DNA of 64,000 nt. Origin: a virus. Shown here piece by piece: positions 55,206-59,157 of this stretch. The notes beneath the pieces are model-generated. The model ran no database searches and was not told the DNA's origin. It was given only the letters and a program-made list of their open reading frames with translations. The stretch spans positions 2,644-66,643 of the IMG/VR virus record IMGVR_UViG_3300044701_004668; one strand, 5' to 3'. Each line of letters begins with the position of its first letter. The stretch's first letter is position 1. The translations under genes and the position numbers were made by a program.

Positions 55206-55511
55206 ATGTTCTATCGCAAAATGTCAGTCCAGAAATTCAGGTCACTAATTGAAAGATTTTCAAGTAAGCAAAAAAATCTGAACGCAATCGCTATCGGTCT
55301 TTATACGCTCCCAATTGATAAGCCGGTTGCGTTGGCAGAGCGGTTGCCGGAGGATTCCGATCTTGATGAATACGGTCGGTGTCTTTATGGGTGCTGGAAT
55401 GGATTAAACGAATTTTGGTGCTGGGACTTGCAAAAGAAACCGCTTGATATTGATACGCATTGGCTGCCATTTGATGTTCAGGTTGCCCCTCACAAACTTT
55501 TCAAGCCGTAG
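55206..55511 (+). CDS. Hypothetical protein (PV..ERLP...THWLP domain)
   Basis: PVALAERLP..D.D..GRC...THWLP. Confidence 0.65.
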   Translation: MFYRKMSVQKFRSLIERFSSKQKNLNAIAIGLYTLPIDKPVALAERLPEDSDLDEYGRCLYGCWNGLNEFWCWDLQKKPLDIDTHWLPFDVQVAPHKLFKP

Positions 55512-55521
55512 TCCATAGATA

Positions 55522-55957
55522 CAAGAAAGGCCCGAGAGTCAATCCCCCGGGCCCTTCCGTGACCTTCGCGCTTGCCAAATGGGTCGAGGGCGCACCAGCG
55601 GATCAACTGGCAGAGATGATCAACCTCTGGCCTGCAAACACAGGACTTAGCCCGATGCGGCGACTGGAGATTTCCGGTCCATGCAGAGCGGGAACACAAC
55701 CCGGAGATTCCTACTGTCGCGTCTGGCGCGGATTCAGAACCAAAGAAAGGGTTGCGTCGAAGATGGGTAGCTCGAAGTTGGCGAGAGAATGCCATGGCTA
55801 ATGACAAGCTTTGAAATCACCGGGCGAGCATCCATCTTCATTTCCAGTATTTACTAGGTTTTCCGGTTGCAACACTGGCAAACTCCCCGGAAACCGCCCT
55901 GCCGCCTAAGCAGGGTCTTTGTTGCGGCCTACGGCCCGGTAGGGGCTTTGAGTCGCT
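55522..55957 (-). ncRNA. Predicted ~440-nt structured non-coding RNA
   Basis: Extended -10 TGATAGAAT at 55963-55971, more than ten hairpins, a long-range helix and a terminator at 55522-55555. Family not recognised. Confidence 0.6.
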
Positions 55958-55968
55958 CAGGGATTCTA

Positions 55969-56217
55969 TCACGGATTGCGTGAAAGAAAGACCCTGCCCC
56001 ATGAGCCCTCATCTTGGTCCGAGTTGAACCAGCGAATGCGCCCAAAGCATCCCTTTTCGGGCTGACAACCAAACCACCAGAGCTGATCTCGATCTGGCTG
56101 ATGCCAAATAACTCTTTTCGATTCACTTTTATCTTTAATAGAAACCACTATCTTTACAAGCTTTCCAATAAATGTCTTATTGCCTTCACTGTCGGTAAAA
56201 TACAAACATCTTTCCAT
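55969..56217 (-). CDS. Hypothetical protein
   Basis: 82-aa ORF behind a strong promoter. Confidence 0.55.
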   Translation of the reverse strand: MERCLYFTDSEGNKTFIGKLVKIVVSIKDKSESKRVIWHQPDRDQLWWFGCQPEKGCFGRIRWFNSDQDEGSWGRVFLSRNP

Positions 56218-56247
56218 GTTTGAGGGGTTAAGAAGCTTGGCATCTTA

Positions 56248-56276
56248 ATTCTATCACGCAGTTTTCTCTTTGTCAA
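56248..56276 (-). promoter_or_regulatory. Sigma70 promoter
   Basis: TTGACA-17bp-TAGAAT with extended -10 TG. Confidence 0.8.
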
Positions 56277-56569
56277 GTCATGCCATGATCCGTTTGTTTT
56301 TTCTTCAGCGTCGCTCTATTGGTTTTAGCGTTATATTTATATTCACTCGGTTTTCTGCCACTTCTCTTTGCCGCCCGATCCTTCGCTCTTCCCGCCGCGC
56401 CCATTGCCTGCCTCTTCTTGCCATATTCGGTTAATTCGTCGCTGCCTTTTTTCAAAATACCGGAATCTTGCAATCTTTTTCTAGCTGTTGCATTTGCCGC
56501 CCCCTCTGACATCCCATTGCGACGAAGCTGGGTTACGAGTCTTTTGAGGATACTTGCCTTAACTGCCAT
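56273..56569 (-). CDS. Small basic protein
   Basis: ILKRLVTQL...A.A...LQ.SG.LK.G...LT..G..R..M....RAKDRA.K...YKYN...N.A. Confidence 0.7.
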   Translation of the reverse strand: MAVKASILKRLVTQLRRNGMSEGAANATARKRLQDSGILKKGSDELTEYGKKRQAMGAAGRAKDRAAKRSGRKPSEYKYNAKTNRATLKKKQTDHGMT

Positions 56570-56634
56570 TTCGCTGGTTTTGCCTATCAAGATTTTAGCT
56601 GCAGGGGTTTTTCGTGTGCAGATTTGCAAACCTG

Positions 56635-56663
56635 TTGCGCACTGGGACCAATGGTGCTACTGT
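56635..56663 (+). promoter_or_regulatory. Sigma70-like promoter
   Basis: TTGCGC-17bp-TACTGT with extended -10 TG. Confidence 0.55.
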
Positions 56664-56697
56664 TTGAAAGTTGTTAGCCCGTTGAAGCGCACCAGCC

Positions 56698-56880
56698 ATG
56701 ACCACGATCACCTGCACCATCCTGGTGCTGCTGCTGTTCCTTGTTCTGTTCTTGCTCTGGGCTACTGAGTCCAGGCAGCAACGCGCCCGTCGCTGGCGGC
56801 GCGACGGGATGACGTACCGCTTGATTGCGGAGCGCATCGGCTGCAGCCAGACAACGGCGCGACGGCTGGTAGCAGCCTGA
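56698..56880 (+). CDS. Membrane-anchored small HTH protein
   Basis: Hydrophobic N-terminus followed by GMTYRLIAERIGCSQTTARR. Confidence 0.7.
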   Translation: MTTITCTILVLLLFLVLFLLWATESRQQRARRWRRDGMTYRLIAERIGCSQTTARRLVAA

Positions 56881-56940
56881 GCGCAACGGCCCGCCGGAGC
56901 CTATTCAATCCGGCAGCATCCCTTCAACCCATCACACGCC

Positions 56941-57351
56941 ATGTTTGAAAACCACCAACCCGGCGAGCCCTATGTGCTCACCCGCGAGCAGTTCATTCGG
57001 TTCGTAGGTTTACCCGTTGCCACCGAAGCCGACGTCAAGGTGGCCATGTGGGCGGCGATTGCATCGTGGGAAGCGCGTCGCACTTTCAATCCCCTCTCCA
57101 CCCTGTGCCACAGCAACCTGCGGATGGACACCATCAATGGCTGGATGGTCTGGGAGTACCAGACCACCAGCGGCACGCTGCTCGGAGCCGCTGAGTGCCG
57201 GACGTTTCTCACCCAGCCTGGCTATCCGGGTGTCGAATGCTCGGACCAGTTTCCCGAGCCTGATTTCACGGTCATCATCCCAGTGGACCGTGACCAGCCG
57301 GGGCGCTACCACTACCAGCAGCTTCGTGAAGGAGGGGCGTTTGATGCCTGA
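56941..57351 (+). CDS. Hypothetical protein
   Basis: 136-aa ORF. Confidence 0.55.
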   Translation: MFENHQPGEPYVLTREQFIRFVGLPVATEADVKVAMWAAIASWEARRTFNPLSTLCHSNLRMDTINGWMVWEYQTTSGTLLGAAECRTFLTQPGYPGVECSDQFPEPDFTVIIPVDRDQPGRYHYQQLREGGAFDA

Positions 57352-57859
57352 ATCACAAAGACACATGACACAAACTGAGCTAGACCAAATCCTTGAAGCA
57401 CACAAGCTATGGCTTGCCGTTGATCCTGCTGGCATCCGCGCTGATCTGAGCGGCGCTGATCTGAGCGGCGCCAATCTGCGCGGCGCTGATCTGGGCGGCG
57501 CTGATCTGAGCGGCGCTGATCTGAGCGACGCCAATCTGAGCGGCGCCAATCTGAGCGGCGCCAACGGGTTGCCAATTGCTGCAGATGCCAAGCAACGGCT
57601 GCGTGCGGTTGCCAGCCATGTATTGGCTCACCCCCAAATCCTGCAAATGGGAAAATGGCATAGCGAGTGCGGCACTACTCACTGCTTGGCGGGGTGGGCT
57701 ATTCACCAGGCTGGAACGCTAGGCGAAGTCTTGGAGGAACTTCATGGCCCATACATGGCTGGATTGCTGTTGTTAGGCGCTGATGCTGCTGCGCACTTCT
57801 ACGACGAGAAGAACGACGCCATTGAGTGGCTGCAGTCTGTTGCACAGGAGGCGGCATGA
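57344..57859 (+). CDS. Pentapeptide-repeat protein
   Basis: ELDQILEAHKLWL, about 8 A(D/N)LSG repeats and a C-terminal CGTTHCLAGW motif. Start at ATG 57344 or 57365. Confidence 0.85.
   Translation: MPESQRHMTQTELDQILEAHKLWLAVDPAGIRADLSGADLSGANLRGADLGGADLSGADLSDANLSGANLSGANGLPIAADAKQRLRAVASHVLAHPQILQMGKWHSECGTTHCLAGWAIHQAGTLGEVLEELHGPYMAGLLLLGADAAAHFYDEKNDAIEWLQSVAQEAA
57438..57565 (+). repeat. 15-bp coding tandem repeat (GCTGATCTGAGCGGC-like)
   Basis: Encodes the pentapeptide repeats. Confidence 0.9.
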
Positions 57860-58518
57860 CCACGCCACACCGCGCCACGCCATCGGACTGGGCGTGGCTT
57901 GAAGGAAACTCAACCTGCGACAGGTGCGATGCCGCATGGTCGCGAGGACTGATTGAACTCCGCGCCCGCATTGAAAAACTGGAATTGGCTTCGGAAAACA
58001 AGGATGATTTGCTGGCCCAGCCCGAGCCGCAGGGGCCGAGTGATGAGGAATTGCTTGAATTGCTTAGTCGTGCCAGTGGTCTTCCTGAACCCGACTCATA
58101 CATCGTTGATGGTGGAAGGATTATGGCTGAGCCCGGCGAGATTCTCAGCTTTGCCCGCGCCGTCCTAGCCCGCTTTGCCCGCCCGGCCATCGAGCCGGTG
58201 CCGGTGAGCGAGCGGCTGCCGGAACCCCACACGAAAGTCATCGCCCACTATCTCAACGATCTCGGAAATTCTCGGACCATTCTTGCTGAGTGGGTGCCAG
58301 CAAAGTCACGGACCGATGACTGCTTAGTGGATGACGACTTTGCCGAATACGACGAAGAAGCCGATGAATACTACTGGCCGGAAGGCTGGTATGAAAGCAT
58401 TGAGAACTGGGATGATTACGGGGCTGTGTTTGTTCACGAAGGCATGATTACGCACTGGCAGCCGCTTCCGCCTCGACCCCACCACGCGCTGCCGGTGCCG
58501 CAGCAGGAGGTGAAGTGA
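57856..58518 (+). CDS. Mosaic hypothetical protein (PSDEEL / PVSERLP...THWQPLP)
   Basis: Coupled ORF with a DUF551-like ERLP...WQPLP domain. Confidence 0.7.
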   Translation: MTTPHRATPSDWAWLEGNSTCDRCDAAWSRGLIELRARIEKLELASENKDDLLAQPEPQGPSDEELLELLSRASGLPEPDSYIVDGGRIMAEPGEILSFARAVLARFARPAIEPVPVSERLPEPHTKVIAHYLNDLGNSRTILAEWVPAKSRTDDCLVDDDFAEYDEEADEYYWPEGWYESIENWDDYGAVFVHEGMITHWQPLPPRPHHALPVPQQEVK

Positions 58519-58856
58519 TGGCTGACCACAGCATCACACCACCGCCGGAGCTGGTGCGGCAGTGGTTTCTGGAGTGGACTTGTGACAAGTCCATTAAAGG
58601 GGTGGGTCCAGACATCTATGTCGCCAACCGCGCCGCCAAGTGGGGCGCCGACATTGAACTGGAGGCGTGCTGTGAGTGGTTACAGCATGACTATCCCAAC
58701 ATTGGTGCAAACGCACTCCGCGCCGCCCGCCGCCCAAAGCCCCAGACACTGAACAGCATTGCACTAGAAATGCTGGGGACAATTGAAAGAATGGATGTCG
58801 TGATTCCAGAGATCACCGACACCATCCGCCGAGCCTTGGAGCAACTCGATGACTAA
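58518..58856 (+). CDS. Hypothetical protein
   Basis: ITPPPELV.QW...WGAD.ELEACCEW...LRAARRP. Confidence 0.7.
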   Translation: MADHSITPPPELVRQWFLEWTCDKSIKGVGPDIYVANRAAKWGADIELEACCEWLQHDYPNIGANALRAARRPKPQTLNSIALEMLGTIERMDVVIPEITDTIRRALEQLDD

Positions 58857-59157
58857 CCTCACCCCCAACGATCTAAGCCACCTCAGTGATGAGGAGTTCA
58901 ATGCGTTGTGTCCACAAGGCCATCATGCACCTGGACCAGCTCAGCCGTTATCGCCCGCCGCGCAGGCGGTTCTGGATGCCTACTTGAAAAGCCCGTGGGA
59001 TCCATGCTTGCAACATGAAGATCGTTTAGCCATTGCCGCCGCCCTGCGAGCTGCTGCGAACGATTGGCGGGTAGACACTGAGTTCATAGGCGGCGTCGAA
59101 TACATCCGCACAAGCACCTTGGATACCATCGCCGCCGAGCTGGAGGGGAGTCAATGA
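58849..59157 (+). CDS. Hypothetical protein
   Basis: LSPAAQAVLDA...AAALRAAA...IAAELE. Confidence 0.7.
   Translation: MTNLTPNDLSHLSDEEFNALCPQGHHAPGPAQPLSPAAQAVLDAYLKSPWDPCLQHEDRLAIAAALRAAANDWRVDTEFIGGVEYIRTSTLDTIAAELEGSQ

Follow-up and report, generated by a model that had tools for sequence, protein, structure and literature searches.

A structured phage RNA gene with its own predicted promoter and terminator, member of an RNA family absent from Rfam 15

Few large structured RNAs are known from phages, and hardly any has been assigned a function. ROOL (~580 nt) and GOLLD (~800 nt) are large, elaborate, phage-borne non-coding RNAs that also adjoin tRNA genes, and the function of neither family is known. 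CsrB and RsmZ, defined by many loop repeats, are abundant RNAs that titrate a protein through hairpin loops, and pseudo-ToxI is a tandem array of ~36-nt units. In phage PhiTE, pseudo-ToxI has been described as a phage RNA mimicking a type III antitoxin (PMC3475682), a precedent for a structured phage RNA that neutralises a host RNA-binding toxin. GOLLD, ROOL and OLE, large RNAs of bacteria and phages, are reported to be RNA-only homo-oligomers that are partly stabilised by kissing loops (10.1101/2024.12.08.627333). An RNA of C. difficile with two abiF motifs, RCd22, is reported to bind and neutralise the AbiF toxin (10.1101/2025.04.15.648962), and in the cyanomyovirus S-CREM1 the RNAs manA, wcaG and abiF are annotated within a tRNA array (PMC9964418). 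Here we describe a minus-strand RNA gene at 55521-55971 of a 64,000-nt stretch of viral DNA (the window), which is nearly the whole of the 66,643-nt IMG/VR virus record IMGVR_UViG_3300044701_004668.

The product is predicted from its sequence and covariation to be a stable, highly structured, non-coding RNA of ~390-440 nt. It represents a new family within the already known general class of orphan structured phage RNAs. As a whole, the locus is best explained as an independent structured phage RNA gene whose product would serve as a protein-binding decoy, an account to which we give slightly better than an even chance. The window RNA is shorter (~440 nt) than GOLLD and ROOL, and its modules are swapped between phages. 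It shares with CsrB and RsmZ the general idea of an abundant RNA that could titrate a protein through hairpin loops; however, its conserved core is single. The family also lacks the repeats of pseudo-ToxI, except for a two-copy minimal core in one type of locus (L138).

The RNA gene lies in a minus-strand unit (55521-56278) composed of a promoter, an open reading frame (ORF) of 82 aa, ~440 nt without a good ORF, and a hairpin followed by a U tract. Its features are as follows.

55521-55971, minus strand: RNA gene, from the extended -10 promoter to the hairpin terminator.
55963-55973, minus strand: predicted promoter of the extended -10 type for the RNA gene, CGTGATAGAAT, identical to the box at 56248.
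55855-55957, minus strand: 5' domain with GCCC/GGGC (or CCUAC/GUAGG), CCCUGC/GCAGGG and GGUUUCCGG/CCGGAAAACC, near-invariant in close relatives.
55759-55839, minus strand: central domain, closed by GAAGAUGG/CCAUCUUC and GCUCG/CGAGC (helices 8-10, covarying).
55693-55758, minus strand: helix GACGCAACCC/GGGUUGUGUU around two small hairpins (helices 11-13, 97-100% of cells paired).
55651-55692, minus strand: invariant core hairpin with P1 CCCG/CGGG, a 3x1 internal loop CUC/U, P2 UGC/GCA, the apical P3 and the loop AAAUCU (25/25 identical except P3).
55611-55649, minus strand: linker UAAGUCC, hairpin CCUG/CAGG (55644-55631), GGCC and hairpin CAGAG/CUCUG (55629-55611), supported by covariation.
55560-55610, minus strand: 3' pseudoknot module with M7 CCAG/CUGG and loop UUGAUCCG (55610-55595), UGCGC/GCGCG and loop GACCCAUUUGGCAA (55594-55567), and tail GGUCA (55564-55560).
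55521-55558, minus strand: predicted intrinsic terminator, a 15-bp hairpin GGCCCGGGGG/CUCUCGGGCC followed by UUUCUUGU, supported by fold and covariation.

The sequence of the RNA part has what a bacterial transcription unit calls for, an extended -10 element upstream and a GC-rich hairpin with a U tract downstream. The extended -10 element TGATAGAAT at 55971-55963 fits TGnTAnAAT, and the predicted RNA start is near 55957. The window contains just two exact copies of the box CGTGATAGAAT, one at 55963-55973 and the other at 56248-56258, each on the minus strand, so that the 11-mer repeat pointed out in an earlier sequence-only reading of this region is exact and confined to these two copies. Its TGA doubles as the stop codon of the upstream 82-aa ORF, and the box is conserved in the window and in the related loci L006, L007 and L176. 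The terminator stem has three pairs changed on both sides in a six-sequence alignment (helix 18). A consensus terminator scanner did not list the 55558-55521 hairpin, probably because the stem extension consumes the U tract. In the close relative L004 the edges of the cassette coincide with 56278 (upstream promoter) and 55521 (terminator).

In L176, homology to the window begins exactly at ATCCGTGATAGAAT, that is, at the -10 box, and the RNA stands behind an unrelated ORF of 202 aa; the RNA gene is thus independent of the 82-aa ORF. We conclude that the RNA has a gene of its own, with predicted promoter and terminator, as the sequence-only reading had proposed for a non-coding minus-strand unit. 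The same reading had called the unit antisense to the replication module, which holds for its orientation only: the RNA 3' end at ~55521 lies 10 nt from the stop (55511) of a convergent 118-aa ORF, and no plus-strand gene is overlapped. At the left junction (window 55963-55975; L176 2966-2978), ATCCGTGATAGAAT supplies the last codon and the TGA of two unrelated ORFs, the upstream one ending in NP before the stop in the window and in HP before the stop in L176. These junction sequences suggest that recombination of the RNA cassette takes place at its own -10 box.

The same cassette was present in two IMG/VR contigs and in one contig of a metagenome-assembled genome (MAG), with an identity of 92.8% over 55521-56278 for L004 and 85.7% for L005, L007 and L008. 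With three sequences, 8 of 128 pairs had changed on both sides, compared with 4.3 in shuffles (5/500 reached the observed value). The set was extended to six by the diverged full-length L176 and L204 and the partial L138. Here, 18 of 105 pairs were compensatory against 8.7 ± 1.9 in shuffles (0/500 reached it) and 2-5 pairs in slid controls, with 96.6% of cells paired. The six-sequence consensus energy was -121.4 kcal/mol on the minus strand vs -106.3 kcal/mol on the plus strand, with 21 vs 40 non-standard cells, and the minus strand had 66 G-U cells vs 11 A-C cells, which favours the minus strand as the RNA strand. The minimum free energy (MFE) of the single sequence, whose comparison with shuffles had been suggested earlier, was neither exceptional nor strand-specific: -172.9 kcal/mol with z -1.82 on the minus strand (4/100 shuffles as good) and z -2.17 on the plus strand (3/100).

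The RNA appears as a chain of modules: the 5' domain, the central domain, the core hairpin, two small hairpins and the 3' pseudoknot. The best-supported helices were the long-range helix, CCCUGC/GCAGGG, CAGAG/CUCUG and the terminator. The long-range helix that the sequence-only reading had drawn (55839-55825 with 55774-55759) had the strongest support of all, 4 of its 13 pairs (helices 8 and 9) having changed on both sides. Over the whole central domain (helices 8-10), five pairs had changed on both sides and 100% of cells were paired; GAAGAUGG/CCAUCUUC of the window becomes GGGGGUGG/CCACCCUC in L204, and the inner hairpins vary, L204 and L138 having lost them. In the 5' domain, CCCUGC/GCAGGG (55915-55897; helix 3) had two pairs changed on both sides, and no covariation was found in the other two hairpins. 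GGUUUCCGG/CCGGAAAACC (55895-55857) never covaries and has two uncompensated changes at its base in L176; CCUAC/GUAGG has a C-A mismatch in L204, where RNAalifold favours GCCC/GGGC. Helices 11-13 had only one-sided (G-U) changes. The earlier list of stems thus fared unevenly: compensatory changes were seen in CCCUGC/GCAGGG, CCUG/CAGG and CAGAG/CUCUG, the pairs of CCAG/CUGG were kept by eye, and GGUUUCCGG/CCGGAAAACC and CCUAC/GUAGG were not supported. Two further pairings considered by eye were dropped, one of the UGAUCA loop with the central-domain GGUGAUU, which reads GGUAAUU in L204 and L138, and one of the linker AAGUCC with the tail or P3, which is not conserved.

Exact 19-mer searches retrieved just the two known contigs. 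The wider family came to light with two degenerate patterns, made of helix strands separated by a free gap, and nhmmer matched 32 loci. With a covariance model (R1) built on the core domain there were 26 matches, 25 of them distinct, among the window and 76 of 102 viral loci, the 26 excluded loci being mostly duplicates. The window was the top match (108.2 bits, E 4e-21), by construction, since it is in the seed; 12 matches outside the seed scored 41-51 bits. According to these matches, the RNA is one of at least 25 distinct members of a phage RNA family that has no entry in Rfam 15 and is suitable for one. What had been taken for a single novel gene is novel, but is one member of a family that often lies in phage tRNA arrays.

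The core, present once in the window, has the family form CCCGCUCUGC-variable-GCAUCGGG. P1, the internal loop and P2 were letter-identical in 25/25 distinct sequences with unrelated flanks, including L204, L211 and L214, none of which had been chosen by the core pattern. In P3, 4/6 pairs had changed on both sides, pair 20-48 showing five pair types, and UUCG stands in place of P3 in L211 and L214. For both reasons, a Ro/Y-RNA-like or signal recognition particle (SRP)-like reading of the P3 letters GGUCCGG was rejected. Downstream of the core, 17 distinct sequences continue with YAAGUCC, a hairpin, GGCC and another hairpin; both hairpins covary, and AAG.CC is invariant within the linker. Over the core domain of the 25 distinct sequences, 13/23 pairs had changed on both sides against 6.0 ± 1.2 after shuffling (0/500) and 3-5 in slid controls, in an alignment that was fitted to the model and hence leans towards the structure. 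Covariation in homologues, to which the sequence-only reading had referred its proposal, is therefore found both at full length and in the core. The flanking modules vary between contigs and are shuffled.

Two variants of this architecture were seen in relatives. At L138 6875-6919, and in six loci with identical nhmmer scores, there is a tandem minimal core, CCGCUCUGC-CUCG-GCAUCGG followed by CCCGCUCUGC-UUCG-GCAUCGGG. A second recurrent module, a hairpin with loop UGCUCUGUCG, lies upstream of the core in L137, L145, L150, L159, L163, L172 and L154 (for example CACAC-UGCUCUGUCG-GUGUG); the loop resembles the core 5' strand GCUCUGC, and the module is absent from the window RNA.

The CCUG/CAGG and CAGAG/CUCUG hairpins 3' of the core had 9/10 pairs changed on both sides in the core-domain alignment (helices 4 and 5). 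The latter has a ~9-nt loop in which the palindrome UGAUCA (55622-55617) is kept while the stem covaries. By hand count the palindrome is UGAUCA in 8/17 and UGGCCA in 1/17 distinct sequences, the UGGCCA of L172 being a double change that preserves self-complementarity. TGATCA occurs at 40 sites in the whole window vs 20.9 ± 4.9 expected, GATC-type sites being enriched, not avoided.

Further 3', M7, the GCGC hairpin with loop GACCCAUUUGGCAA and the tail are common to the window, L004, L204, L150, L137 and L163; the module is absent in L007 and L176. The loop of CCAG/CUGG pairs with the tail beyond the GCGC hairpin, as UGAUCC, UAGUCC or UGGUCC with GGAUCA or GGACU, and the letters of the CCAG/CUGG stem differ in relatives yet still pair by eye. 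Across six sequences, 2/6 pseudoknot pairs had changed on both sides (0-1 in slid controls), with compensations from G-C to A-U and from A-U to G-C, and the GCGC stem changed to GAGC/GCUC, 1/5 hairpin pairs having changed on both sides. The window tail GGUCA is 1 nt shorter and forms five pairs by eye, owing to which several window cells count as unpaired in the ungapped alignment. The pseudoknot suspected in the sequence-only reading thus exists and covaries, but its partners are the loop and the tail instead of GACC/GGUC. Of the two adjacent UUGAUC loops noted there, the first is kept as UGAUCA in 8/17 sequences, and the second GAUC loop takes part in this intramolecular pseudoknot. A third motif did not hold: where GUGUU had been placed at three loops, L004 and L005 have GCGUU, GUGGCU and GUAUU/CUUCG, and one GUGUU lies in a helix strand. 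A sponge built on GUGUU loops was accordingly rejected, the repeats being unconserved.

The stretch was found, whole or in part, in 20 public runs from 11 studies, six of the runs being RNA libraries. Four RNA runs from four studies, X15, X16, X18 and X19, were compared with the stretch. X15 contained a 369-nt contig of a diverged relative at depth 70.9 on 55563-55946 and a second, near-identical contig of 237 nt on 55685-55921. In X16, a 462-nt L004-like contig at depth 27.8 matched 55563-55986 and continued into the L004-type terminator, and in X19 an identical contig matched 55573-55692. The 5' ends of these RNA contigs were at about 55950 (X15) and 55986 (X16). The ORF part of the cassette, with 93% conservation in L004, was covered by none of the X15, X16 and X19 contigs; over this part X18 had a separate 154-nt contig at depth 2.2. 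The flanks 55300-55545 and 56243-56500 had zero depth in all four runs. Since the relatives have other flanks, only the uncovered, conserved ORF part carries weight. These contigs indicate that the RNA is transcribed as a discrete and probably abundant species, a discrete transcript having been foreseen in the sequence-only reading. Two further RNA contigs had only 55641-55699 in common with the window, with unrelated flanks, and were the first hint of the family. The differences of X15 record 1 from the predicted pairs included 27 gaps, and only the M6 and M7 stems were interpretable.

No reading frame over the RNA is conserved. The two frames in question (55490-55807 and 55559-55801) are not kept in relatives, their lengths in the window, L004 and L005 running 100, 71 and 55 aa and 94, 97 and 55 aa, and L005 differs from the window by several short indels within the RNA region. 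A coding region was rejected on these grounds.

Rfam 15 gave no match at gathering score over the whole window, and at E ≤ 10 over 55300-56400 there were two chance matches, His_leader (18.1 bits, on the terminator) and HOTTIP_3. No tRNA or tmRNA was found in the window by ARAGORN, and no tmRNA model matched at E ≤ 10. RNase P, 6S, SRP RNA and group I/II introns gave no match in the window at E ≤ 10 or in six related loci at E ≤ 0.5. The GOLLD, ROOL and OLE models did not match the window, those of manA and wcaG matched neither the window nor 23 related loci, and the abiF motif (a 37-nt hairpin with loop CUCUCAACGAU) was absent from the window even at E ≤ 10. In relatives, too, the core matched no Rfam 15 family. 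Known RNA families were rejected through these Rfam and ARAGORN scans; the judgement that the RNA is unlike tmRNA, RNase P, 6S or an intron was sound, and its novelty stands. A phage isolate collection (50,697 records) held nothing matching the window RNA region or the inter-tRNA region of L159, and the L172 region matched there only through its abiF motif. A metagenome protein scan found no relative, and among the matches listed from a metagenome pattern scan (at least 119 stretches) none was homologous by blastn. No description of this RNA was found in the literature searched; the unnamed candidates of PMC10690425, where 8,495 phage RNAs of 29-151 nt are reported, may overlap parts of it. 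The main text of PMC5737381 does not mention abiF.

ARAGORN found tRNA genes in 11/19 related loci checked (22 in L159 and 11 in L136), and by hand count the core lies within ~500 nt of same-strand tRNA genes in 8/19 loci, that is, in 8 of the 11 with tRNAs. The core adjoins tRNA-Asn in L159, L136, L168 and L181. This recalls manA and wcaG, structured cyanomyovirus RNAs between tRNA genes whose role is likewise obscure; in S-CREM1, manA stands between tRNA-Leu and tRNA-Asn. The S-CREM1 array gave no match to model R1 (best 6.1 bits, E 0.33). The window phage has zero tRNA genes.

The Rfam abiF motif (RF03085) was found at gathering score directly 3' of the core domain in 8/23 loci scanned (L163, L172, L152, L154, L145, L160, L211 and L214), on the strand of the core in 8/8; like the orientation of the neighbouring tRNA genes, this agrees with the strand assigned to the RNA. 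In L160, L211 and L214 it abuts the core domain where the window has the pseudoknot module. The core hairpin is not itself an abiF motif. An abiF hairpin also stands 4-5 nt upstream of a tRNA gene at L152 6431-6467, L154 3037-3073 and L229 (S-CREM1) 1505-1541. No abiF protein gene is annotated near the hairpin in the S-CREM1 region, and none turned up in the few annotated phage regions, no search aimed at abiF genes having been made. Such hairpins upstream of tRNA genes could be phage decoys for AbiF-like host toxins, released by RNase P. A tmRNA gene of the permuted, two-piece kind lies at L145 2078-2261 on the minus strand (54.5 bits against a gathering score of 47), separate from the family member there; the tmRNA, a tRNA-Ile, the abiF motif and the core RNA lie on the same strand within ~900 nt, the tmRNA ~440 nt downstream of the core. 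The family ties together two puzzles, the orphan structured RNAs in phage tRNA arrays and the abiF hairpins without an abiF gene in the regions examined.

Among possible functions we ranked a decoy or sponge first, a self-assembling RNA second and a tRNA-linked role third. Invariance is limited to one short hairpin, its internal loop included, and the RNA therefore looks like a protein-recognition RNA. The decoy idea came from the abiF hairpin 3' of the core in relatives together with the neutralisation of AbiF by RCd22, and it is ranked first because abiF is a known toxin-binding motif and pseudo-ToxI is a precedent. We propose tentatively, at well short of an even chance, that the RNA works in trans by binding protein, as a decoy or sponge. 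In such a scheme, host RNA polymerase would start at the extended -10 element and stop at the intrinsic terminator, and in the larger, cyanophage-like contigs, where the core lies in tRNA arrays and on their strand, tRNA-processing enzymes would presumably excise the core RNA. An RNA-binding protein of host or phage would recognise the invariant core hairpin, and the swappable 3' modules (abiF in sister clades, the pseudoknot here) would act as additional decoys, aimed at RNA-binding toxins of the host. In a more far-reaching version, which we consider doubtful, these would be modular decoy carriers whose invariant hairpin disarms a host RNA-binding defence or RNA-processing protein while the 3' modules neutralise toxin-antitoxin or abortive-infection nucleases; phages would then deploy an RNA-based anti-defence arsenal from tRNA arrays or from strong promoters of its own. 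Were the simpler decoy proposal true, RNA counter-defence, so far represented by pseudo-ToxI, would extend to a widespread environmental, probably cyanophage, family. Several observations weigh against the account of an independent decoy RNA. The core has no consistent neighbour that might be a partner protein (the 82-aa ORF here, the 202-aa ORF in L176, tRNAs elsewhere), and the link to AbiF is by association only, the window RNA being without the abiF motif. In the three-sequence fold the plus strand was as good or better (z -6.9 vs -4.9 on the minus strand). In a sample of 401 Planctomycetota genomes, 6 had pattern matches against ~17 reversed-control matches, none confirmed by the model, which is chance level. 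The contigs give neither strand, exact ends nor RNA level, and RNA libraries can contain DNA; yet the contigs end near the RNA borders, where DNA would not stop. The X16 contig starts 29 nt upstream of the predicted start and may reflect some read-through, or processing, from the promoter upstream.

A self-assembling RNA like ROOL, GOLLD or OLE, in which the UGAUCA loop would join a homo-oligomer acting as scaffold or cage instead of decoy, would suit a large, ornate and abundant RNA found beside tRNA genes in relatives, and it has a described precedent (10.1101/2024.12.08.627333). Multimers of GOLLD and ROOL use kissing loops and the window RNA has a conserved palindromic loop; the palindrome is retained while its stem covaries and keeps its self-complementarity in L172. 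Against this, the loop is GACG in L163 and non-palindromic in L152, and GGCC of L145, L168 and L181 can join a longer stem with an AUGG tetraloop (by eye). UGAUCA is mostly shared by descent, with one independent double change, for which we estimate that a palindrome would be retained by chance about one time in five, and TGATCA is over-represented throughout the phage. With the second GAUC loop engaged in the intramolecular pseudoknot and no Rfam match to GOLLD, ROOL or OLE, this explanation appears rather unlikely; for loop-loop dimerisation through the first loop the evidence is suggestive but weak. If assembly were nonetheless confirmed, it would be the fourth natural self-assembling RNA. 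A role in translation or tRNA metabolism, for instance as a substrate mimic or decoy for tRNA-processing or tRNA-cleaving enzymes, would account for the place inside phage tRNA arrays in 8/19 loci, the neighbouring tmRNA of L145 and the likeness to the manA, wcaG and abiF RNAs of S-CREM1 (PMC9964418). The window phage, however, has no tRNA genes, yet the RNA is kept and strongly expressed, nothing tRNA-like was detected by ARAGORN or by the Rfam tRNA and tmRNA models, and clustering of RNA genes may only mean shared transcription and processing. We consider such a role distinctly unlikely.

The remaining alternatives, that the RNA is a 3' untranslated region (UTR), a DNA element or a dead gene, are unlikely. 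As a structured 3' UTR of the 82-aa ORF message, transcribed from the promoter at 56248, the RNA would protect the message or be a by-product of its decay. ORF and RNA do travel together in the window, L004, L005 and probably L204, and one RNA contig begins at 55986, upstream of the internal -10 box. But in L176 the RNA, from its -10 box onwards, follows an unrelated ORF, the 82-aa ORF is missing from distant family members, and L130 has an ORF homologue without the RNA downstream; with RNA contigs over the RNA and not over the ORF part, a 3' UTR is improbable. An element acting as DNA, such as a replication origin or packaging site, would agree with the adjoining replication genes and with both strands folding about equally well in the three-sequence set. 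This conflicts with the confinement of RNA-library contigs to the region, the excess of G-U over A-C cells and the lower minus-strand energy with six sequences, and 7-9 kb separate the cassette from the primase gene in the two related contigs; a decayed gene conflicts with frames that are broken in relatives. Either of these is very improbable. For a large structured phage RNA, the present one is a well-defined case, with promoter, terminator, strong covariation, invariant core, covarying pseudoknot and RNA contigs at depths of 28-71 from freshwater metatranscriptome runs.

The features next to the RNA gene in the conserved cassette are the following.

56248-56276, minus strand: upstream sigma-70-type promoter TTGACA-17-TAGAAT with TG, 11/12 consensus matches; it serves the 82-aa ORF and is outside the RNA gene proper.
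55969-56217, minus strand: 82-aa ORF for a W-rich small protein, a neighbour of the RNA but separable from it, its frame kept in relatives.

The 82-aa ORF was intact in 3/3 relatives, with a nonsynonymous to synonymous ratio (pN/pS) of 0.081/0.203 between the window and L005. A profile search (HMMER, 1.84 billion representatives) gave 11 matches at E ≤ 0.001; one was the cluster of the query itself, nine were remote small proteins and the last was a false hit due to low complexity. The resulting unnamed family has 71-118 aa and a common C-terminus, GCFGRxRWxNSDxxExxWGRVWWS. The 82-aa protein had no Pfam or PHROG match, the nine remote relatives no Pfam family at curated thresholds, and the fold model was poor (pLDDT, a per-residue confidence score, 57.1). 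In the high-GC contig L130, the homologue (2435-2656) overlaps the start of the next gene, whose product begins like thymidylate kinase by eye from the translated sequence, and no RNA homology was found downstream of it.

The right part of the window is a plus-strand replication block comprising a 494-aa ORF with a weak archaeo-eukaryotic primase (AEP) match, beyond which lie genes for a DnaD-like loader and a DnaB helicase. The window also encodes a Kyanoviridae Gp96 domain, ThyX and a pentapeptide-repeat protein, and glutamine-II riboswitches occur in L144, L163 and L172; judged by these sequence matches, the phages are probably cyanophages. L008 belongs to a Phycisphaerales MAG, which has one copy, on a phage-like contig. 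Just upstream of the cassette promoter, a 118-aa Lys/Arg-rich ORF without a family match (56273-56629, minus strand) is conserved in L007 and not in L006. Positions 56600-59000 form an island of ~59% G+C within the ~45% genome, which includes the pentapeptide-repeat protein at 57017-57859 (Pfam PF00805, E 1.5e-15).

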